Source of the DNA: Candidatus Cloacimonadota bacterium
GTDB lineage: Bacteria > Cloacimonadota > Cloacimonadia > Cloacimonadales > WRIO01
Length of the DNA: 61,496 bases
Assembly (NCBI GenBank): GCA_009777575.1
Contig: WRLO01000010.1
Coordinates: 1 to 61,496, forward strand
Direction: 5' to 3'
The position numbers and the translations under genes are program-made. The first letter of the stretch is position 1, and each line of letters begins with the position of its first letter. This document shows, one piece after another, positions 2,095-16,193 of the stretch. The notes below the pieces were generated by a model. The model worked only from the letters and a program-made list of their open reading frames with translations, was not told where the DNA came from and searched no databases.

Positions 2095-3371
2095 AAGAAA
2101 AAATCATGTCAATCGCAGAATTTATGAAGAAAAACATCAATGCGGATGATTTCAAACTTTATGTAAATTATAATGACGAACAATGCACCCGGTTCGCTCA
2201 AAATACTATAACTCAACATATCAGTGGTGACTACATAGAAGTCTCTTATGTTTGCATCAAAGACCAAAGAATAGGCACAGCATCTACAAGGCAAATAGAT
2301 GAAGAAAACTTATTGAAAATCATACAAAAAGCAGAAGAAATTGCTGTTAATAACTCACCAGACACTGATATGGAAACAACTCTTTCAAAAGAAGATTATC
2401 CCGAATTAAAGAATTATTTTCCAGCTATAGAAACCCTTGATACTGCAAAAATGATTGAAATCATAAAGAAATGTATAGATTTTGCTGAGACAAAACAGGG
2501 TATTCTTTCAGGTATTATCACAAAAAGCATAAATGAGTTTGTCTATATGACAAAAAATGGTTTTTTGGGGTATGATAAATCATCTGAAATTGAACTTTCC
2601 ATGACCTTACGCAAAGAACATATTGAGACAAAGACTACTTTTACCAATAAAGATTTTGAAAAGCTCTGTTTGGATGGTATATTATCGCGTCTAAATGAGC
2701 AATTTGATTCGCTTAAAGAAATGAGATCGATGGATTTTGAGGCTATACCTGTAATTTTGAGACCACAAGCAGTTGAACAGTTGTTTATGTTTTTCAACTG
2801 GTATATGTTGGACAGAAAAAGAGCTGATGAAGGTTTAACACCACTCACAAATCAAATAGGTCAAAAATTCTTTGGAGAAAAGTTTAATATCATCTCAGAT
2901 ATCAATGACAAAGACCTGACCACACAACCTTTTAGCTCAAACAATGTTCATAAAACAGTTCAATGGGTGAAAGATGGTGTCATATTAGACCTCCCTACTT
3001 CGAGACAATGGGCACAAAAACACAATCTAATACCGAGCTACATGTTCAATTTTATCATTGAAGGCGAAGGTGTCTCCGAGAAAGAGATGATGAAAATGGT
3101 GAAAAGAGGGCTTATCATAAACAATCTCTGGTATATCAGGCTGAATGACTTAAAAACTGCTGATTTTACAGGTATGACACGCGACGGAGTCATGTATTTT
3201 GAAGACGGAGAGATAAAATATGCTGTGAACAATTTCCGTTTTAATGAGCAGATACACGATGTGACAAAAAGAATACTTGCCACTGGAGAAAGTGTTCAAC
3301 AAGGCTCAAATTCAAAAGTTCCAGCAATGTTGATAAAGGATTTTGTTTTTGTAGACAAGACAACTTTTTAA
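2091..3371 (+). CDS. pmbA: PmbA/TldE-type partner protein of TldD (TldD/PmbA family member lacking the HExxxH motif).
   Basis: Translationally coupled to tldD (4-bp overlap). Length of 426 aa and family resemblance fit, and the metal-binding motif is absent, as is typical for PmbA/TldE. Confidence 0.75.
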   Translation: MKEKIMSIAEFMKKNINADDFKLYVNYNDEQCTRFAQNTITQHISGDYIEVSYVCIKDQRIGTASTRQIDEENLLKIIQKAEEIAVNNSPDTDMETTLSKEDYPELKNYFPAIETLDTAKMIEIIKKCIDFAETKQGILSGIITKSINEFVYMTKNGFLGYDKSSEIELSMTLRKEHIETKTTFTNKDFEKLCLDGILSRLNEQFDSLKEMRSMDFEAIPVILRPQAVEQLFMFFNWYMLDRKRADEGLTPLTNQIGQKFFGEKFNIISDINDKDLTTQPFSSNNVHKTVQWVKDGVILDLPTSRQWAQKHNLIPSYMFNFIIEGEGVSEKEMMKMVKRGLIINNLWYIRLNDLKTADFTGMTRDGVMYFEDGEIKYAVNNFRFNEQIHDVTKRILATGESVQQGSNSKVPAMLIKDFVFVDKTTF

Positions 3372-3409
3372 GAAAGTATTTTTGTTTCTCTTAGGCTTAA
3401 CACAACATA

Positions 3410-3443
3410 AAAAATCCCCCTGAAAAGGGGGATTTTTTATTTT
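3410..3443. terminator. Bidirectional rho-independent terminator between convergent pmbA and the downstream minus-strand gene.
   Basis: ATCCCCC-TGAAAA-GGGGGAT hairpin followed by TTTTTATTTT. On the other strand it is preceded by an A-run. Confidence 0.6.
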
Positions 3444-3453
3444 CCGATTCTAT

Positions 3454-4086
3454 TTAATCCCACCCGTCTTGCGAATAATCAAGCTCAAAAGTATCAACTA
3501 TTATGTTGATCTCACTATATTCCATCACATCTCTTTGAATAGGAAAAAGAATGGACCAATAAGCCATCATCCTATTACCAATTTCAGGAACATGTCGATT
3601 TATAGTGATATTTAGGGTTTCATTCGCAATTTCTGGTTCTTCTGCACTAATTCTATTTGAACCGCTTGCTTCACTACGAAAAACCATAATTATCTGATTA
3701 TTCAAAAAATAATCTTCATTATATTCTCTTAATTCTGAAGCGATTTGAGGAGCATGAGTATAATCCCACATTTGTCCCATTTCATTCATTTTTAAAGAGA
3801 TAAAATCTTCAATATCCTGAAGTGAATCTAGGACAATAAAGGAAGTATTATTATTTTCTTGATGGGAAGGTGCCATAGATTGACTAGAACCAAGTATTTT
3901 TATTTCTGTCCGTTGGACATTATGATTTTGAGGCATTGAGGCTCGCTCATTACGCCCCATTGCATTTAGTTCATAAGTCAAAAAAGTAAAAAACATTACA
4001 AAAAATACCAAAACAAAAACAGAAATACTAGTAGTATCTGCTTTTTTAGTAAATAAAATCATCATTGTCTCCTTAAATTTTTCCAT
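3454..4086 (-). CDS. Hypothetical membrane-anchored protein (single N-terminal TM helix).
   Basis: 210-aa ORF with a hydrophobic N-terminal segment VFVLVFFVMFFTFLTY. No recognisable catalytic motif. Confidence 0.45.
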   Translation of the reverse strand: MEKFKETMMILFTKKADTTSISVFVLVFFVMFFTFLTYELNAMGRNERASMPQNHNVQRTEIKILGSSQSMAPSHQENNNTSFIVLDSLQDIEDFISLKMNEMGQMWDYTHAPQIASELREYNEDYFLNNQIIMVFRSEASGSNRISAEEPEIANETLNITINRHVPEIGNRMMAYWSILFPIQRDVMEYSEINIIVDTFELDYSQDGWD

Positions 4087-8189: not shown

Positions 8190-9782
8190 ATGATAAAACT
8201 AACAATCAATCAAAAAAAAATAACAGAAGCAAGAGCTTATGCAAAGAAAATCACCAATGAAATTACATGGCTTTTTGAGGGATATAGCTCTGTGACCATA
8301 GAGAGAGCTGTATTAAGACTTCTCGGTGTAGATGGAGCTACCGCAGACGGGACACCTTACCCTAATGTGATAGTGGACTATTTAAAAGACAAAAAAATCA
8401 TTGATAAGGGAGCTGCTTATCATATTTGTAATGCAATGATTTATTTGTGTGATAGTGGGAATGTCGGATTACAAGGTAATTTTACAACTCAAGAAATTGC
8501 TGAGAAAATAATAAAAAACGAAATAAACCTATCAGAAATACCAGCTCAAGACCCAAAAAAAGTTTATGAATTAATGCAGTCTGAAACCAGTAAATCTTTG
8601 GAAAATATCACACAGCAAAAAGAATATAGAAACTGTCAATTTACCAAGTATGGAGAAAGAAAAAAGCCTTCTCTTTATGTGATTGTAGCCACAGGAAATA
8701 TTTATGACGATGTAGTCCAAGCAAAAGCAGCTGCTAAACAAGGTGCAGACATCATTGCTGTCATCCGGTCAACAGGACAATCATTACTCGATTATGTGCC
8801 TTATGGGGCTACTACAGAGGGGTTTGGTGGAACTTTTGCTACCCAAGAAAATTTCCGAATCATGCGAAAGGCACTTGATGAAGTAGGTGAAGAAATAGGT
8901 CGTTATATCTGTCTGACCAATTATGCTTCCGGTCTTTGTATGCCTGAAATAGCAGCAATGGGAGCAATGGAAAGACTCGATGTCATGCTTAACGATGCAA
9001 TGTATGGCATTTTATTCAGAGATATAAATCCACGAAGAACATTGTTAGACCAGTATTTTTCGAGAATGATAAACGGTTTTGCGGGTATTGAGATTCAGAC
9101 CGGTGAAGACAATTATTTGACCACTTCAGATGCAGTAGAAAAGGCATATACAGTGACAGCATCTCAATTGATAAATGAACAATTTGCGATTTTGTCAGGA
9201 GTGAAAGCAGAAAAAATGGGGATAGGACATGCTTTTGAAATAGACCCAGATATTGAAAATGGCTTTCTTTACGAAATAGCTCATGCAATGCTGACAAAAG
9301 AATTGTTTCCTAATTCACCGACTAAATACATGCCTCCAACAAAGTTTATCACTGGCAATATATTTAAGGCATATTTGATGAACGCCATGTTTAATTTTGT
9401 TGCTCAACTCACAGGACAAGGAGTGCAGCTACTCGGGATGCTCACTGAGGCTGTTCACACACCGCACCTTCAAGATAGGGCATTGGCTATCGAAAATGCA
9501 GAATATATTTTTAAAACAATGAAAGATTTGCCTAAAGAAATTTTCATAACTGAAGATGGCTTTATCAACCGAAGAGCAAATTTTGTTTTAGAACAAGCAA
9601 CTGACTTTCTAGCAAAAGTGTCCGAAAAAGGTCTTTTGACCTCTATGGCACAGGGAGAATTTGCAGATATAAAAAGACCAGAAGAAGCTGGTAAAGGTCT
9701 CGAAGGGGTGTTTAAAAAAGCAGAAGATTATGTCAATCCTTTTATGGAGAGGATGAAGATAGAACTGGCTACTAAGAAATAA
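8190..9782 (+). CDS. kamD: D-lysine 5,6-aminomutase alpha subunit.
   Basis: 530 aa. Long identical stretches to KamD as I remember it (LYVIVATGNIYDD..AKAAAKQGADIIAVIRSTGQSLLDYVPYGATTEGFGGTFATQENFR, LCMPEIAAMGAMERLDVMLNDAMYGILFRDIN, KYMPPTKFITGNIFK). Confidence 0.9.
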   Translation: MIKLTINQKKITEARAYAKKITNEITWLFEGYSSVTIERAVLRLLGVDGATADGTPYPNVIVDYLKDKKIIDKGAAYHICNAMIYLCDSGNVGLQGNFTTQEIAEKIIKNEINLSEIPAQDPKKVYELMQSETSKSLENITQQKEYRNCQFTKYGERKKPSLYVIVATGNIYDDVVQAKAAAKQGADIIAVIRSTGQSLLDYVPYGATTEGFGGTFATQENFRIMRKALDEVGEEIGRYICLTNYASGLCMPEIAAMGAMERLDVMLNDAMYGILFRDINPRRTLLDQYFSRMINGFAGIEIQTGEDNYLTTSDAVEKAYTVTASQLINEQFAILSGVKAEKMGIGHAFEIDPDIENGFLYEIAHAMLTKELFPNSPTKYMPPTKFITGNIFKAYLMNAMFNFVAQLTGQGVQLLGMLTEAVHTPHLQDRALAIENAEYIFKTMKDLPKEIFITEDGFINRRANFVLEQATDFLAKVSEKGLLTSMAQGEFADIKRPEEAGKGLEGVFKKAEDYVNPFMERMKIELATKK

Positions 9783-9956
9783 AAAGATTGATTTATTATC
9801 TACTAAAAAATTTAAACCCTTTTTGATAAATTATATAATTGTTGACAAAATTTAATGCTTTTTTTTTATGTAGGTTGAAGAGTTATAAATATAGGAAGTG
9901 TTGGCTGGGAGATGCTAATAATTGACAGATGATAATAAAAATAAAGGAGTGAGATA

Positions 9957-10994
9957 ATGACACAAAAACATTTGAACACTGCAAAGATTAACAAGGCTGA
10001 TGAGTTTTATACTCAGATGACTGATATCGATAAAGAGATGAAGTATTATAAGGCTTTATTTAAGAATCAAATTATTTTTTGTAATTGTGATGACCCTTAT
10101 GAAAGTAACTTTTTTAAATTTTTTGCTATGAGTTTCAATCATTTGGGGTTAAAAAAACTCATTGCAACTTGTTATGATGGTTCACCAATTGCTAGTACCC
10201 AATTGACATTGTTTGATTATGAACCACCTGAAAATAAAACTACTAAAAACGCTCACAAAATAGTAATGGAAGAACTGACAGATGAAAATCATGATGGTGC
10301 CACTGGATTAGCAGATGTAGAACTAATCCTCAGAAACAAAAAAAATGTGTTAACAAGATTAAAAGGCAATGGCGATTTTCGCTCGCAGGAATGTATAGAA
10401 TTACTGAAAGAAACCGATATAGTAATAACCAATCCTCCTTTTTCATTGCTCAGAGAGTATATAGCACAGCTGATAGAATATGATAAAAGATTTATCATAA
10501 TCGGAAATATAAACGCAGTAAGTTACAAAGAAATTTTCAAACTGATAAAAGAAAATAAATTATGGCTCGGGGAGAGCATTACTAGCGGTGATAGAGAATT
10601 TAAGGTTCCAGATTATTATCCCCTTGATGCAGCAACTACACGGATTGATGAAAACGGTAATAAATATATCCGTGTAAAAGGTGTTCGTTGGTTCACAAAT
10701 ATTGATGTTCCTAGAAGACATGAAAAACTTTATTCATACAAAAAATATACACCTGAGGAGTTTCCACAATATGATAATTTTAACGCTATTGAGGTGTCAA
10801 AAGTTGTAGATATTCCAATAGATTGGGATGGAATTATGGGAGTACCAATATCGTTCTTAGATAAATATAACCCAGAGCAATTTAAAATCGTAGGAAATGA
10901 AGAAACTCTAAATATTCCTAAAGGTAGATGCTATATAAATGGTAAAAGATTATATGCAAGAATTTTTATCAAAAGACTAGGAGATATTAAATGA
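9957..10994 (+). CDS. N6-adenine DNA methyltransferase of the EcoRI-methylase-like family.
   Basis: N-terminal DEFYTQ, NCDDPY..NFFKFFA, catalytic ITNPPFSLLREY (NPPF motif IV). Good RBS. Stop overlaps the next gene's start (ATGA). Confidence 0.7.
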   Translation: MTQKHLNTAKINKADEFYTQMTDIDKEMKYYKALFKNQIIFCNCDDPYESNFFKFFAMSFNHLGLKKLIATCYDGSPIASTQLTLFDYEPPENKTTKNAHKIVMEELTDENHDGATGLADVELILRNKKNVLTRLKGNGDFRSQECIELLKETDIVITNPPFSLLREYIAQLIEYDKRFIIIGNINAVSYKEIFKLIKENKLWLGESITSGDREFKVPDYYPLDAATTRIDENGNKYIRVKGVRWFTNIDVPRRHEKLYSYKKYTPEEFPQYDNFNAIEVSKVVDIPIDWDGIMGVPISFLDKYNPEQFKIVGNEETLNIPKGRCYINGKRLYARIFIKRLGDIK

Positions 10995-12073
10995 AAATAG
11001 AGTTAAAAGAAATATCAATCAGAGAGGTTGCTTTAGGATACATTGATGACAAAGAAGAAGGTGTATTAGGGTATGAGCGAAGATTAAACATCCGTCCTAA
11101 ATATCAAAGAGAATTTGTATATGATGACAAGAAAAGGGATGCAGTGATAGATACCATCGTAAAAGGTTTTCCTTTAAATGTGATGTATTGGATAGTCAAT
11201 GAAGATGGCACTTATGAGGTTTTAGACGGGCAACAAAGAACTATCAGTTTTTGTCAATATATCAATGGTGATTTTCAAGTGGATAATTTACGATTTTATA
11301 ATATGACTGATATAGAACAATCGCAAATCCTCGATTATAAACTCATGATTTACTTCTGCGAGGGCAATGACAAAGAAAAACTCGATTGGTTTCGAATAAT
11401 TAATATTGCTGGCGAGAGACTTTATGAACAGGAACTCCGAAATGCAGTTTACACAGGTCCTTGGCTTTCAGAAGCAAAAATAATTTTTAGCAAAACTGGT
11501 TGTTCAGCATATAAATTAGCACAAAACTATGTCACCGGCTCCCCCATTCGTCAAGACTATCTCGAAACCGCAATAAAATGGATAAACAAAGGTCAGATTG
11601 AGGAATATATGTCTATTCATCAACATGATCCCAATGCGAATGAGCTTTGGACATATTTTCAGAATGTGATAAACTGGGTAAAACTGACTTTTCCAAAATA
11701 CCGCTCAGAAATGAAAGGTCTCGACTGGGATGGTCTATATGATGAACATCATAAAAAGTTATTCGACACAGCAAAGCTCGAAAAAGAGATAGAAAACCTG
11801 ATGGTAGATGACGATGTAACAAATAAAAAAGGGATTTACAGTTATGTCCTCAATCGAAAAGAAAAACATCTCAATATCAGAGCCTTTACTGAGAGCCAGA
11901 GAAGGCAAACCTTTGAGAGACAAAATGGAGTCTGTTCTAAATGTCAGAAAACCTTTGAAATAAAACAAATGGAAGCTGATCATATAACACCTTGGAGCAA
12001 AGGAGGGAAAACGGTTGTGGAAAACTGTCAGATGCTATGTAAGGAATGTAATAGAAGGAAGAGTGGGGTGTGA
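10991..12073 (+). CDS. DUF262 (ParB/GmrS-like, DGQQR motif) fused to a C-terminal HNH endonuclease.
   Basis: IRPKYQREFVYD and LDGQQRT motifs in the N-terminal half. C-terminal CSKCQ...ADHITPWSKGG...NCQMLCKECNRRK HNH zinc-finger nuclease motif. Translationally coupled to the upstream MTase. Confidence 0.8.
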   Translation: MKIELKEISIREVALGYIDDKEEGVLGYERRLNIRPKYQREFVYDDKKRDAVIDTIVKGFPLNVMYWIVNEDGTYEVLDGQQRTISFCQYINGDFQVDNLRFYNMTDIEQSQILDYKLMIYFCEGNDKEKLDWFRIINIAGERLYEQELRNAVYTGPWLSEAKIIFSKTGCSAYKLAQNYVTGSPIRQDYLETAIKWINKGQIEEYMSIHQHDPNANELWTYFQNVINWVKLTFPKYRSEMKGLDWDGLYDEHHKKLFDTAKLEKEIENLMVDDDVTNKKGIYSYVLNRKEKHLNIRAFTESQRRQTFERQNGVCSKCQKTFEIKQMEADHITPWSKGGKTVVENCQMLCKECNRRKSGV

Positions 12074-12189
12074 AATACAGTAAGGGAAACATTTACCCAT
12101 TTAACATTAATATTATTATCTTTGATGCAATGAAGGTATGAAAAAGATTATCATTTTAAAATGAATTTTAATTAATTATTTAAGATAGA

Positions 12190-12495
12190 GGAATATTTTG
12201 TACGACCACTAGAGCAAATTATATCGAGATTTTACGCCGTTTTAAACAAGAATATGGTGAAAAATAAGGTATTATAAGTATTGGATTATTTGGGTCTGTA
12301 GCACGAGATGAGCATACAGAAGAAAGTGATGTAGATGTTTTGGTAGAAGCGCCAACGATGAGTATATTCACTTGTATGGATATCGCAGAAAAGTTGGAAG
12401 AAATGATGGGTGTAAAAGTGGATATAGCTACAAAATCTAAATTTAAGCGTCCTCGATTTAAGGCAAGAATTGAAAAGGAGGTGGTTTATGTATGA
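12190..12495 (+). pseudogene. Nucleotidyltransferase (MNT/MntA-like antitoxin) gene with an in-frame TAA nonsense codon and no clear start.
   Basis: Frame reads ...EILRRFKQEYGEK*GIISIGLFGSVARDEHTEESDVDVLVE..., with the stop at 12265-12267 falling where a Tyr is expected (GEKYG). GS-x-ARDE..SDxD polymerase-beta-fold signature. Confidence 0.55.
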
Positions 12496-12600
12496 TAAAA
12501 CATTGGTTATTGACCATTTGATATTGATAAAAAACTTAGTTTCGTTATAAAAAGGCAGGTAGAATAGCTTTTGAATCAACTTTATAGGAGTTGTAGTTAT

Positions 12601-12894
12601 ATGGATAATAAGATTCCAGAAAATTATCAAAAAGACATCGAAGTTGCGGTAGATTTTCTTAAAAGCGAGGGTTGCGAAGCAGTTTATCTATTTGGATCAT
12701 TATTAACTGGAAATATTCACGAAAGATCAGACATTGACTTAGGAATTAAAGGGTTACCTCCTAAAAAATTCTTTCGAGTATACGCAAAACTTGATGATAG
12801 AGTAATAAATGAGATTGATCTAGTTGATTTTGATGAACAGTCAAAATTTTATGATTTATTGTGTTCACTTGGAGAGGTAATAAAACTTGGATAA
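12601..12894 (+). CDS. Nucleotidyltransferase-domain (MNT-like) protein, apparently an orphan antitoxin-like component.
   Basis: VYLFGSLLTGNIHERSDIDLGI signature. AGGAG RBS 9 nt upstream of the ATG at 12601. The downstream HEPN-like partner is reduced to a 36-codon fragment (12887-12997). Confidence 0.55.
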   Translation: MDNKIPENYQKDIEVAVDFLKSEGCEAVYLFGSLLTGNIHERSDIDLGIKGLPPKKFFRVYAKLDDRVINEIDLVDFDEQSKFYDLLCSLGEVIKLG

Positions 12895-13078
12895 AACTAT
12901 AGGGAAAAAAATATTATTCGAAATCGAACAGCTTGATGAACTAATGGAAAAATCAAGACCTTTTTTATCTATCTGTCTCGAAAGAGAACCAAACTAAAGA
13001 GGGCAAGGTAGCTGTAGATGTTTTGTTTAAGGATACAAGCGTTTGGTTAAATCAAGAATATAAAATTAGGAGAATATA

Positions 13079-13708
13079 ATGCCAATAAACAAAAATAGTT
13101 TAATAAAATGTTTAATTGAAATGAAAAAGATTTATTTAAAAGACCCTATAGGTTCAGTTCGTAGCCAAGGTTTTATAAATTTCTTACACGAATATTGTAT
13201 TGATGAGCTACAAAAGGTAGGCATAAATGAAAATCATTTTCAGATACTAAAAGAAGCTACTTTATACGGTTCTCACAAATCCAAAGATGTAGATGTAGCA
13301 GTCATTGAAAACATAAACGGTCCACAAATCATTGTAGGTATCCGTAGCCAAATGTCTTCAATAAGTAAGAATATTTTAACATACTATGAAGAAATAATAG
13401 GAGATTGCATTTCCTTGCACGACAGGTTTCCCATGGCAGTTTTGTGTTATATCTATTTGCTACCTAAAAAGCCTATCAAAACAGGAGTAACTGAAAAGGT
13501 TAATCTTGAAAGAGCTGAAAAGCTATATATGAGAATAACTGGTAGAGAAGATTGGAGGTCTCCAAAGGATAAATATGAACATTTTGCTTTTTTGAAAGTA
13601 GATTTCGAAACAGACCCTCCCACCATTTTGGAAACTGACCCTTTATTGTGTATTGAGCATTTTTTTGACAAAATAGTTCATACTTACAATGAAAGGAAAC
13701 CATTATAA
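13079..13708 (+). CDS. Hypothetical protein. Candidate restriction endonuclease partner of the overlapping downstream MTase.
   Basis: 209-aa ORF with strong RBS. 20-bp overlap with the following gamma-class MTase. Possible PD-(D/E)xK-like DVDVAVIEN...GIRSQ segment (weak). Confidence 0.35.
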   Translation: MPINKNSLIKCLIEMKKIYLKDPIGSVRSQGFINFLHEYCIDELQKVGINENHFQILKEATLYGSHKSKDVDVAVIENINGPQIIVGIRSQMSSISKNILTYYEEIIGDCISLHDRFPMAVLCYIYLLPKKPIKTGVTEKVNLERAEKLYMRITGREDWRSPKDKYEHFAFLKVDFETDPPTILETDPLLCIEHFFDKIVHTYNERKPL

Positions 13709-15437
13709 GGAAAGAATTAGTATGTCTCCACATAAGCAAAAGCAAACAGGGTCATTTTATACTGAAAGTGTAGTAGTAGAAAGTATGATAAAATGGGCAA
13801 TCAGAGAAGGTAAAGAAAGTGTTTTAGAACCATCATTTGGAGAAGGCATTTTTATCGAAAAGTCTTTGAATCGCTTTAATGAATTAGGCAATGATAATCC
13901 TAAGCTTGTGGCTATAGAGATACAACCTGAAGTCGCAGATAGTTTCAGAAATAAAGAGAAATTGGAAACATCTTATGTTATAAACAGTGATTTTTTGGCT
14001 TTTCATTCTGATGAAAAATTTGATGTTGTGATAGGCAATCCGCCTTATGTCTGCCTTAAAAACATTTCATCGGAACAAAGATATACAGCTCAAAAAGTCA
14101 TTGAACAGTATTTAACTAGATGCCCAAACAATGGCAGCTTATGGTTTCCATTTGTTTTAAAATCTATTTCGTTATTAAAGCCAGAAGGTCGCATGGCTTT
14201 TGTCTTGCCTTTTGAGATAACTTATACACGATATGCTTATGCTTTGTGGGAGACCTTATCACAAAACTTTTCAAGCCTGTCTATCAGTCGTATATATGAA
14301 GACTTTTTCCCAAATGTCGATGTTGAAACTATTATTTTTTACGCAGCAGGTAAAAATGGGACAACCGACTTTATAGATTACAATATTTATAATGGGGTAG
14401 AGGATTTACAAAATAACAATATAAATAAAAAAGAAATTATCTGTTTGTCAGAAATATTCAACAATGAAAAGCCCTTTATATCTAGGACACTTGACAAAAC
14501 ACAACAGAAACAATTGATCAATATAAAAAACAAAGGTTTTTTGAAACCCATAATAGATAGCTGTAAATTTAAAATAGGTTATGTGTCTGCTGATAAAAAC
14601 TATTTTCATCCACAATCAAACATTATTCGTCATTTTTCAATTCCAGATGAAAATTTGATACCTACGATTTTAAATGCTAAAGAAATAAATGGAGGATCAA
14701 ACATAGGCTTGGAAGTACTTAAAGGAGATTGTTCTTCAAAGCTATACTGTCCTAAAAATATTTCAGAAGGTGATAGGTTATACTTAGAAAATGGAAAAAT
14801 GATGCAAGTTCATAAAAAATATAAATGCAAGAATCGCAAACCATGGTATATTACTCCCAACATTGAGTATCCAGACATGATATTAACCGTTTTTGGTGAA
14901 GTGCCTAAACTTATTGCCAATAAAGGAGGATATGCTGTTTCAAACAGTCTCTTGTGTGGCAGTTTGAAAGGCATTTCAAAAGAGCAATTTATCTGTAGAT
15001 GGTATAACAGCCTTACTTTATTATCTTTGGAGCTGAATATCCATTCTTTGGGTGGAGGAACTTTGGTTATCATACCGGGTGAAGCTGATAGGTTAAATAT
15101 CGTTGAAAATATTCCTCGCAGTATTGTTAGCTCAATATATGAGAAATTGAATGAAGAAACTCAAAAAAACGGAATCGAATACACTTATGCTTTAGGTGAT
15201 AAAATAGTCTTACAAGACATTTTTGGAGTTACTGATGAAGAATTGAAGTATATTCATGAATCAATAAAACTTCTTCGTAGCTGGAGAAACCCTATAAATA
15301 GAAGAAAAGATTGTTTAAAAAAGAATGTTTTTAACACAATAGAAAATAAAGATTTCTTTGCTCAGAAAAAGAAAAATGATATATTAAATAAACATCGTAT
15401 AACACACCTCTCCCAAATAGAGGTAAACAAATATTAG
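13689..15437 (+). CDS. Gamma-class N6-adenine DNA methyltransferase (type II, TaqI/Eco57I-like arrangement).
   Basis: GSFYTE (motif X-like), LEPSFGEGIF (motif I, FxGxG), VIGNPPYV (motif IV NPPY). Long C-terminal target-recognition region. Confidence 0.8.
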   Translation: MKGNHYKERISMSPHKQKQTGSFYTESVVVESMIKWAIREGKESVLEPSFGEGIFIEKSLNRFNELGNDNPKLVAIEIQPEVADSFRNKEKLETSYVINSDFLAFHSDEKFDVVIGNPPYVCLKNISSEQRYTAQKVIEQYLTRCPNNGSLWFPFVLKSISLLKPEGRMAFVLPFEITYTRYAYALWETLSQNFSSLSISRIYEDFFPNVDVETIIFYAAGKNGTTDFIDYNIYNGVEDLQNNNINKKEIICLSEIFNNEKPFISRTLDKTQQKQLINIKNKGFLKPIIDSCKFKIGYVSADKNYFHPQSNIIRHFSIPDENLIPTILNAKEINGGSNIGLEVLKGDCSSKLYCPKNISEGDRLYLENGKMMQVHKKYKCKNRKPWYITPNIEYPDMILTVFGEVPKLIANKGGYAVSNSLLCGSLKGISKEQFICRWYNSLTLLSLELNIHSLGGGTLVIIPGEADRLNIVENIPRSIVSSIYEKLNEETQKNGIEYTYALGDKIVLQDIFGVTDEELKYIHESIKLLRSWRNPINRRKDCLKKNVFNTIENKDFFAQKKKNDILNKHRITHLSQIEVNKY

Positions 15438-15446
15438 GAGAATAAA

Positions 15447-16193
15447 ATGTCATTTATTATAGACCATACAAGAGTCAAACCCTACGGGGATACATTAAAC
15501 GATGGTAGGATACAGCTGTCATTTTCTATGCCAGTTACCTGTGATGAAAAAGGAAAAGAAGCGGCAAAAATTTTGCTAAAATCTATGGGTTTTGAAAACA
15601 TAGAGATTTGTTTTTTGAAAGAATTACATGAAGGTTTTACGCAGTTTATAGCCTACGGAAACACTTCTGTCACTGTAGATACCACCAAAATCATAGTCAA
15701 TGTAGTAGAAACAGAAGTTATGACTATGGATGAAACAGACGATTTTATCGAAAAAAACATAGGTCGGAAAATAACTGTCATAGGTGCTTGTATAGAGACT
15801 GATGCACATACTGTGGGCATCGATGCTATCATGAATATGAAAGGCTACAATCATCGATACGGATTGGAAAGATATAAATATTTCAATGCAATAAATCTTG
15901 GTGCTCAAATACCTTCGGAAGAACTGCTTAAAAGAGCAAGAGAGTTCAATGCTGATGTGATTTTAGTCTCTCAAATAGTTACTCAAAAAGATATTCATGT
16001 CAAAAACCTTACTAGACTAATAGAACTTGCAGAAGCAGAAAGATTGAGAGATAAAATGCTTTTCATCTGCGGTGGTCCAAGACTAAATCACGAACTCGCT
16101 ATCGAACTTGGCTATGATGCAGGTTTTGGAGCAGGAAGTTATGCTACTAATGTGGCGAGTTATATTGCTGTAGAGATGGAGAAAAGGAAGTGA
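15447..16193 (+). CDS. kamE: D-lysine 5,6-aminomutase beta subunit (B12-binding).
   Basis: 248 aa. RVKPYGDTLNDGRIQLSF..., GRKITVIGACIETDAHTVGIDAIMNMKGY..., GGPRLNHELAIELGYDAGFG match KamE as I remember it. Begins 10 bp after the MTase stop with its own RBS. Confidence 0.9.
   Translation: MSFIIDHTRVKPYGDTLNDGRIQLSFSMPVTCDEKGKEAAKILLKSMGFENIEICFLKELHEGFTQFIAYGNTSVTVDTTKIIVNVVETEVMTMDETDDFIEKNIGRKITVIGACIETDAHTVGIDAIMNMKGYNHRYGLERYKYFNAINLGAQIPSEELLKRAREFNADVILVSQIVTQKDIHVKNLTRLIELAEAERLRDKMLFICGGPRLNHELAIELGYDAGFGAGSYATNVASYIAVEMEKRK

Follow-up and report, generated by a model that had tools for sequence, protein, structure and literature searches.

The window, meaning the whole stretch of DNA that was analyzed, comprises 61,496 nucleotides of contig WRLO01000010.1 (positions 1 to 61,496, forward strand; assembly GCA_009777575.1) from a Candidatus Cloacimonadota bacterium. 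It contains a DNA methyltransferase gene followed by a nuclease gene, and the pair lies within a 5.7-kb island (positions 9783 to 15446) that splits the genes for the alpha and beta subunits of lysine 5,6-aminomutase, which are normally adjacent. The features of the island and its borders are as follows.

8190-9782: lysine 5,6-aminomutase alpha subunit (kamD)
9783-9956, + strand: leader, from the kamD stop to the methylase start (sequence, consensus scan)
9957-10994, + strand: EcoRI-family N6-adenine DNA methyltransferase, 345 aa (PF13651, PADLOC MTase_II, identity to M.EcoRI)
10431-10442, + strand: catalytic motif IV NPPF of the methylase, residues 159 to 162 (T158-N-P-P-F-S163 invariant in alignment A4)
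10991-10994, + strand: ATGA stop/start overlap of methylase and nuclease (nuclease ATG 10991-10993, methylase TGA 10992-10994)
10991-12073, + strand: DUF262-HNH nuclease, 360 aa, predicted restriction subunit (Pfam, PADLOC REase_II, AF2 model)
11087-11452, + strand: DUF262/ParB-Srx-like domain of the nuclease, residues 33 to 154 (PF03235 GmrSD_N/DUF262, E = 4.9e-17)
11933-12064, + strand: zinc-finger HNH domain of the nuclease, residues 315 to 358 (PF01844 HNH, E = 5.6e-14)
13079-13708: second type II restriction-modification (R-M) system, nuclease
13689-15437: second type II R-M system, Eco57I-type methylase
15447-16193: lysine 5,6-aminomutase beta subunit

The preliminary description had reported two open reading frames joined by an ATGA overlap, and the open reading frame list and the sequence agree with it on the positions of both genes and of the overlap. 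A Shine-Dalgarno sequence, AAGGAG, lies at positions 9944 to 9949, 8 nt before the methylase ATG, and the leader also contains putative sigma-70-like hexamers (TTTAAA-17-TATAAT, positions 9811 to 9839), found by consensus scan only. Besides the second R-M system, the island holds fragments of an MntA-like nucleotidyltransferase, the remnant of an MNT gene, and a 23-nt direct repeat (20 of 23 positions identical) that occurs before the second nuclease gene and again before the beta-subunit gene.

The methylase belongs to the M.EcoRI lineage

A Pfam search matched the first protein to PF13651 (EcoRI_methylase, a family of gamma-class m6A methylases) with an E value of 2.6e-137 and 458 bits, against a gathering cutoff of 26.4, and the alignment was near full length (methylase residues 6 to 335 on model positions 2 to 339 of 345). 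The PADLOC model MTase_II PDLC03297 covers the methylase full-length (E = 4.4e-123). With the Pfam match and an intact NPPF motif, the earlier assignment of this protein to the EcoRI methylase family is borne out. Alignment A4 consisted of methylases that included the authentic M.EcoRI, taken from an E. coli plasmid on which the adjoining gene is labeled "type-2 restriction enzyme EcoRI." In this alignment the N-terminal blocks DEFYT (residues 15 to 19) and CDDP (residues 44 to 47) are invariant, M.EcoRI included. Among the nuclease-paired methylases, variation is concentrated in blocks at residues 81 to 140, residues 200 to 245, and the C terminus.

By BLASTP, the window methylase and M.EcoRI share 45% identity over their full length, or 49% over shared alignment columns. 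M.EcoRI shows 44 to 61% identity to the methylases that have a DUF262-HNH partner, whose mean identity to one another is 55%, and a neighbor-joining tree without bootstrap placed it within their radiation. Methylases whose partner is an R.EcoRI-like enzyme reach 61 to 68% identity to those with a DUF262-HNH partner. The placement of M.EcoRI and these cross-identities therefore indicate that one methylase lineage serves two unrelated nucleases.

The nuclease joins a ParB-like domain to a zinc-finger HNH center

The second open reading frame gave Pfam matches to both PF03235 and PF01844, as would follow from its earlier description as a DUF262 (DGQQR) and HNH nuclease. The DUF262 motifs are YQR at residues 38 to 40 and DGQQR at residues 79 to 83 (nucleotides 11225 to 11239). 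The HNH domain has the layout CxxC...DH...N...CxxCN, made up of C315, C318, D330, H331, N345, C350, C353, and N354, with the predicted catalytic D330-H331 at nucleotides 11978 to 11983. This region aligned to the Gme HNH nuclease 4H9D (E = 2.2e-6), and PF14279 HNH also matched the C terminus beside PF01844. The Pfam E values, together with the recurrence of the same gene pair in hundreds of unrelated genomes, rule out chance for the domain calls of both proteins. DUF262 and HNH were the only domains found in the nuclease; SF2 helicase motifs and a PD-(D/E)XK center were not found in it, and no separate DNA-reading domain was recognizable in its 360 amino acids by Pfam or fold search. Membership in the GmrSD family was considered and rejected, as the protein is without DUF1524 (PF07510 absent at E ≤ 0.01 in the Pfam search). 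The PADLOC model REase_II PDLC03418 matched nearly the whole protein (E = 1.2e-135, nuclease residues 1 to 358 on model positions 1 to 370 of 372); REBASE is cited in the PADLOC papers, and the seeds of this model may be characterized or putative entries.

Residues D330-H331, N345, and N354 are kept in alignments A1, A2, and A3. In both proteins conservation of the catalytic residues extends down to about 35% identity, for NPPF in the methylase and for YQR, DGQQR, the D-H-N-N residues, and the zinc cysteines in the nuclease. Across the 66 sequences of A3, which span 35 to 81% identity, Q39, R40, D79, G80, R83, N138, Q147, E148, N151, W229, C315, G339, and N345 are invariant, and both the ParB-like pocket and the HNH center are therefore under strong constraint. 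Loss of the HNH catalytic residues, named in the preliminary description as a finding that would speak against a working nuclease, was looked for by alignment and was not seen; the residues are intact.

An AlphaFold model of the nuclease built from the diverse 66-sequence alignment had a pLDDT of 92.6 and a pTM of 0.74. It replaced an earlier AF2 model with a pLDDT of 60.7, which had been built from a shallow alignment of homologs 70 to 80% identical. Foldseek matched the newer model to CTP-bound ParB, Noc, sulfiredoxin, BrxU, and SspE, identifying the DUF262 domain as ParB/Srx-like, and found no full-length structural match to the nuclease in the PDB.

The nuclease is found beside an EcoRI-family methylase

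The first nuclease-side sample consisted of 80 species-representative genomes with nucleases at least 60% identical to that of the window, of which 77 loci had enough upstream DNA to be evaluated. The taxa include Christensenella, Anaerolineaceae, Saccharibacteria, Paceibacterota, Gracilibacteria, Bacteroidales, Rickettsiales, Neisseria perflava, Sulfurimonas, and one bin labeled as an archaeon. An EcoRI-family methylase lies upstream on the same strand in all 77. A set of 80 IMG/VR contigs gave 78 evaluable loci, every one with the methylase; it is directly upstream in 67, upstream beyond an insertion in 7, and downstream, in the order R then M, in 4. In total, a methylase accompanies the nuclease at 155 of 155 evaluable loci of the nuclease-side samples. 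Both genes are present on every plasmid that was opened, namely those of Ligilactobacillus (7.5 kb), an uncultured organism (8.4 kb), Macrococcoides, Gordonia, E. dispar, and Chryseobacterium and the E. faecium megaplasmids, and also in the cultured Flavobacterium phage laban6-1, at 38% identity. For a nuclease homolog 36% identical to that of the window, on a phage-like contig, no EcoRI-family methylase was found within 3 kb; its neighbors are a family-B DNA polymerase and a nucleoside deoxyribosyltransferase.

Starting from the methylase gave a different picture. Among the 80 best viral-contig loci, 47 methylases were accompanied by the nuclease, 4 by an R.EcoRI-like enzyme, and 27 by neither within 4 kb. 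The nearest relative of 18 of 32 lone methylases is a nuclease-paired methylase, as expected if the nuclease had been lost. This asymmetry, in which the nuclease occurs without a methylase in none of 155 loci while the methylase is often alone, fits a nuclease that is dangerous to unmethylated self DNA and a methylase that is its antidote.

The spacing of the two genes is tight but tolerates interruption. The distance from stop to start in 67 complete pairs was -4 in 24 and -11 in 8, with most others within about 30 nt on either side of zero, yet elsewhere genes for RhuM, Bro-N, ORF6N, DUF6978, and DUF1828/1829 proteins are inserted between M and R. Genes of the RhuM, Bro-N, ORF6N, and DUF1828/1829 types are typical hitchhikers in R-M operons. 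The cargo reaches 3.5 kb, and in one enterococcal plasmid it is the resistance gene optrA. The pair is found on small plasmids, in integrase-flanked defense islands, and in phage, and the neighborhoods of a close homolog hold genes for tyrosine integrases, HipA, AAA_13, RloB/AAA_21, and OLD-TOPRIM plus UvrD. A few loci have a damaged or altered appearance. An intact nuclease on the Chryseobacterium plasmid adjoins a methylase with two frameshifts, both in homopolymer runs of A or T, which are possibly sequencing errors; for the seemingly broken genes at loci of Gracilibacteria and Peribacteria, an alternative genetic code is a more probable cause than decay. In one metagenomic contig (P0148) methylase and nuclease are fused in frame, and the NPPF motif is degenerate.

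Methylase distances and nuclease distances are correlated (Mantel r = 0.61, P = 0.001). In 90% of pairs the nuclease is the better conserved of the two proteins, with a mean identity of 0.63 versus 0.55 for the methylase, whereas in type II enzymes it is usually the methylase that is the more conserved.

The pair is abundant and already cataloged

A word-indexed search returned at least 8000 homologs of the nuclease, the best 120 of which are all 360 to 364 aa long and 70 to 81% identical. An exhaustive search of 50%-identity representatives gave 512 clusters at E ≤ 1e-30, nearly all of 360 to 410 aa. Close homologs, at 50 to 80% identity, are spread over many bacterial phyla and are carried by plasmids, integrative islands, and phages, and the range of the family takes in CPR bacteria, Bacillota, Bacteroidota, Pseudomonadota, and Campylobacterota as well as plasmids and phages. 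As a correction to the preliminary description, the pair is common and mobile rather than rare, and PADLOC already catalogs its parts as type II R and M; the window copy is an ordinary member, one of thousands, of a widespread and cataloged family.

Names are scarcer than sequences. NCBIfam has no named family for the methylase or the nuclease, the RefSeq name of the nuclease is "DUF262 domain-containing protein," a full-length family for it was not found in PHROGs, and a full-text literature search found no paper on the pair of an EcoRI-family methylase and a DUF262-HNH nuclease. The nearest statement is a general one, that fusions of the COG1479/DUF262 ParB-like domain with nucleases, HNH among them, are frequent and that the domain has links to R-M and DNA-modification systems (PMC3632139).

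A recognition site related to GAATTC is plausible

Because M.EcoRI is as close to the paired methylases as these are to each other, a GAATTC-like or AATT-core site for m6A methylation by the window enzyme is plausible and, from the protein sequences, a reasonable guess. Site counts did not single out GAATTC by k-mer avoidance, either in the window or in 87 pooled loci. In counts made without a matched control, the window contains 8 GAATTC sites against 17.9 expected (ratio, 0.45) and 83 GATC sites against 228 expected, and GTAC, ACGT, and GGCC, like GATC, are far more depleted than GAATTC. Pooled over the 87 loci, again without a matched control, the observed/expected ratio of GAATTC was 0.70, behind CTGCAG, ATGCAT, CTCGAG, and GATATC. 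This pattern of depletion is probably generic palindrome avoidance.

A two-gene restriction-modification cassette is the favored reading

The pair is probably a two-gene R-M cassette, whose methylase would shield DNA from cutting by a DUF262-HNH restriction subunit. The asymmetry of linkage, the intact catalytic residues, and the hitchhiker genes between M and R together follow classical R-M logic. Of the two readings offered in the preliminary description, an R-M system whose restriction enzyme is unconventional is favored by that asymmetry and those residues, and also by the conserved M-R overlap and the PADLOC type II matches. The EcoRI-family methylase would introduce m6A into a short sequence, which is probably GAATTC or a similar one with an AATT core. 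Being first in the operon and translationally coupled to the nuclease, it would be made with or before it. The HNH center would then cut DNA without the methyl mark, which could be that of an incoming phage or plasmid or, after loss of the cassette, the host chromosome, while methylation of the site would block the nuclease. The strictly conserved ParB/Srx-like DUF262 domain is likely to bind a nucleotide and to gate or position the nuclease, and an NTP may be required. The preliminary description had also mentioned a widespread, non-restricting phage-derived module; the pair is indeed very widespread and occurs in phages too, but nothing suggests that it does not restrict.

Some features fit poorly with a textbook type II system, namely the greater conservation of the nuclease than of the methylase, the strictly conserved ParB-like and presumably nucleotide-binding domain, and the M-R fusion. 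Type II enzymes are not known to have a conserved NTPase-like domain. As read from the sequence, the conserved DGQQR domain raises doubt about the NTP independence of the nuclease. The 36%-identical homolog with no EcoRI-family methylase within 3 kb, the frameshifted methylase on the Chryseobacterium plasmid, and the site counts that do not point to GAATTC also weigh against the R-M reading.

The same features enter into a reading of the two proteins as a type III-like complex, in which the nuclease would have no specificity of its own, the methylase would be the recognition subunit, and the ParB-like domain would act ahead of the HNH cut as a sliding clamp or switch gated by NTP, with methylation again protective. 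The order of the genes resembles mod-then-res, the nuclease would correspond to an R subunit made of an NTPase-like and a nuclease domain, its fold resembles CTP-bound ParB clamps, and its 360 amino acids show no separate DNA-reading domain. In addition, a nuclease more conserved than its methylase, with the variation of the latter in blocks, recalls Res versus Mod, and the in-frame fusion P0148 points the same way. However, that fusion is the sole one, on one metagenomic contig and with a degenerate NPPF, and M.EcoRI-type methylases are type II enzymes that act independently and whose partner nuclease is unrelated. Tight cotranslation is also not required, because cargo of up to 3.5 kb can separate M from R and some loci carry the two genes in the opposite order. 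On this evidence we consider a type III-like complex unlikely.

The other reading offered earlier, of a methylase that guards against a modification-sensing nuclease or works together with it, is disfavored and in our view quite improbable. In the manner of the type IV enzymes GmrSD and BrxU, or of SspE with SspABCD, the nuclease would either read foreign modification or be activated by host m6A, and the methylase would supply the self mark or shield the host. The earlier premise that DUF262-HNH proteins are usually type IV enzymes transfers weakly to the window: DUF262 and its DGQQR motif are present, but DUF1524 is not, and BrxU is only marginally similar in sequence, at E = 0.004 over about 35 residues. 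Type IV enzymes need no methylase, yet one is present in all 155 nuclease loci while the methylase is often alone, and a classical type II enzyme is among the partners of the methylase lineage. A selfish addiction or homing module with little antiphage function, which would kill cells that lose the pair or spread by means of its HNH nuclease, is very improbable: the spread across phyla at 60 to 75% identity, the 7- to 10-kb plasmids, the adjoining integrases, and an M-R junction that accepts cargo such as optrA agree with it, but all are compatible with restriction and make it no true alternative, both addiction and restriction being known for type II R-M systems, and the frequent residence of the pair in defense islands, that of the window included, argues for a role in defense.

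The nuclease raises broader possibilities. A joint reading, which we hold possible but doubtful as a whole, is that DUF262-HNH proteins constitute a large class of restriction enzymes in which the GmrSD-type ParB/Srx NTP-binding module works the other way round, modification blocking the cut instead of being needed for it. They might be NTP gated, like ParB clamps or type III Res, and might depend on the methylase for their target. They might have preceded R.EcoRI as partner of the M.EcoRI lineage, R.EcoRI being a later replacement, and with a GAATTC-like site they would be neoschizomers of EcoRI with an unrelated fold.

The window copy is of low importance in itself, as its assignment to type II R-M is one that a standard defense finder already makes. 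The interest lies more with the family, whose methylases are siblings of M.EcoRI and for which, even so, no biochemical description and no curated protein name were found. The family bears on whether a ParB-like nucleotide switch can drive a restriction enzyme that is blocked by modification, on the site that such an enzyme reads, and on the swap of two unrelated nucleases within one methylase lineage. Its presence on plasmids that carry optrA, erm, and mef/msr resistance genes makes it relevant to plasmid maintenance.

Comparison with known systems

The EcoRI R-M system shares the methylase family (PF13651) with the window pair, and both are two-gene mobile cassettes. They differ in gene order, R then M for EcoRI and M then R here, and in the nuclease, since R.EcoRI is a PD-(D/E)XK enzyme unrelated to the ParB-like plus HNH nuclease of the window. 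GmrSD and BrxU have in common with the latter an N-terminal DUF262 domain with DGQQR, but they are proteins of about 580 aa with DUF1524, whereas the window nuclease has 360 aa and a zinc-finger HNH of the PF01844 type. They also stand alone and attack modified DNA, in contrast to a nuclease that is linked to a methylase in 155 of 155 loci. In the SspABCD-SspE and Dnd systems the mark is a phosphorothioate laid down by a multiprotein machine, as opposed to the predicted m6A of a single methylase here; SspE contains DUF1524 and is activated by the self mark, and such activation is not indicated for the window nuclease. Type III Mod-Res systems likewise place the modification gene first and have an R subunit that combines an NTPase-like with a nuclease domain and is more conserved than M. 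Their SF2 helicase motor and PD-(D/E)XK center are both missing here, however, and the methylase of the window comes from a type II family whose members also act alone. The HNH type II enzymes KpnI, Hpy99I, PacI, SphI, and MnlI likewise have a beta-beta-alpha-metal center, CxxC...CxxC zinc ligands, and a cognate methylase (PMC4081073).

Composition of the defense island

The defense island (positions 9783 to 15446) interrupts a lysine 5,6-aminomutase operon between the genes for the alpha and beta subunits, which are usually neighbors. In addition to the pair formed by the EcoRI-family methylase and the DUF262-HNH nuclease, it houses a second type II restriction-modification (R-M) system, and two nucleotidyltransferase fragments are located between the two R-M systems. 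The flanking genes and the features accompanying the pair are as follows.

8190-9782, lysine 5,6-aminomutase alpha subunit (PF09043, E=2e-245)
12340-12495 and 12571-12894, one nucleotidyltransferase fragment each (NTP_transf_2; Polbeta/MntA-antitoxin-like, scoring under the NCBIfam cutoff)
13079-13708, nuclease of the second R-M system, 209 aa (PADLOC REase_II PDLC03558, E=7e-17)
13689-15437, Eco57I-type N6-adenine methylase of the second R-M system, 582 aa (PADLOC MTase_II PDLC03267, E=3e-85)
15447-16193, lysine 5,6-aminomutase beta subunit (OAM_dimer and B12-binding)

The two genes of the second R-M system overlap by 20 nt, and a Pfam search with the nuclease gave no match. The beta-subunit gene starts 10 nt past the stop codon of the Eco57I-type methylase. 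A 23-nt direct repeat, A..ATTAGGAGAATA.AATG.CA, is present at 13062-13084 and 15430-15452, its copies being identical at 20 of 23 positions and lying immediately 5' of the starts of the second nuclease and of the beta subunit, respectively. The 2.4-kb cassette of the second R-M system may represent an insertion at the ribosome-binding site of the beta-subunit gene that duplicated that site. The nucleotidyltransferase fragments are probably the remnant of an MNT-HEPN toxin-antitoxin pair; no open reading frame for a HEPN partner was seen.

Across the whole window, GATC is markedly scarce, with 83 sites observed versus 228 expected under a Markov model (z=-9.6), and GTAC (33 versus 96), ACGT (11 versus 55), and GGCC (4 versus 40) are likewise rarer than expected. 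Depletion of these 4-bp sites suggests past exposure to restriction at them, not connected with the pair studied here.

Variant arrangements of the methylase and nuclease

Among 100 loci, only one, on metagenome contig k141_353549 (L096, 2811-6083), carries tandem EcoRI-family methylases, of 365 and 353 amino acids, upstream of the nuclease; this locus is the closest relative, with 81% identity in the nuclease. The tandem methylases are 64% identical to each other, differing mainly around residues 200 to 245, and might provide two specificities, or cover two strands, needed for protection from one nuclease. Fusions also occur. P0148, a nuclease-family protein of 688 amino acids (L090, 3001-5067), joins methylase, DUF262, and HNH parts in a single reading frame. 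Its host translates TGA as Trp, and each of the seven internal TGAs coincides with a conserved Trp position. In the methylase part of P0148, FPSF replaces NPPF and CNAGDG replaces CNCDDP, so this part may lack catalytic activity; a second methylase gene was not found within 3 kb. A further partner arrangement for the EcoRI-family methylase lineage is found on Lactiplantibacillus plantarum plasmid p9 (L088, 2180-4282), where a 700-amino-acid fusion of m6A and C5-cytosine methylases (PF13651 and PF00145) is followed by two hypothetical genes, the first without a Pfam match.

On a Chryseobacterium taklimakanense plasmid (L095), two breaks interrupt the methylase frame (1562-2489), each within a homopolymer run of A or T, and the adjoining nuclease (2501-3586) is intact. 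Either the breaks are a sequencing artifact or the locus is a natural example of the nuclease without its methylase. P0253, a distant member of the nuclease family (36% identity), is encoded on a phage-like contig (L092, 3001-4122), where its neighbors include a family-B DNA polymerase and a nucleoside 2-deoxyribosyltransferase but no EcoRI-family methylase within 3 kb; the DNA of this phage may be protected by other means.

The junction between methylase and nuclease tolerates inserted cargo. In an 8.6-kb Enterococcus dispar plasmid, pK205-4b-C (L094, 61-4699), the oxazolidinone/phenicol resistance gene optrA lies between the two, and in six other loci (L042, L065, L035, L059, L030, and L060) the junction genes encode Bro-N, ORF6N, RhuM, DUF6978, DUF1828/1829, or DUF6261. 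The pair itself appears fragmented under genetic code 11 at five loci from Gracilibacteria or Peribacteria metagenome-assembled genomes (L024, L026, L027, L031, and L067). These lineages reassign UGA, and the fragmentation is therefore probably a translation artifact, in which case the cassette has reached hosts with a different genetic code.
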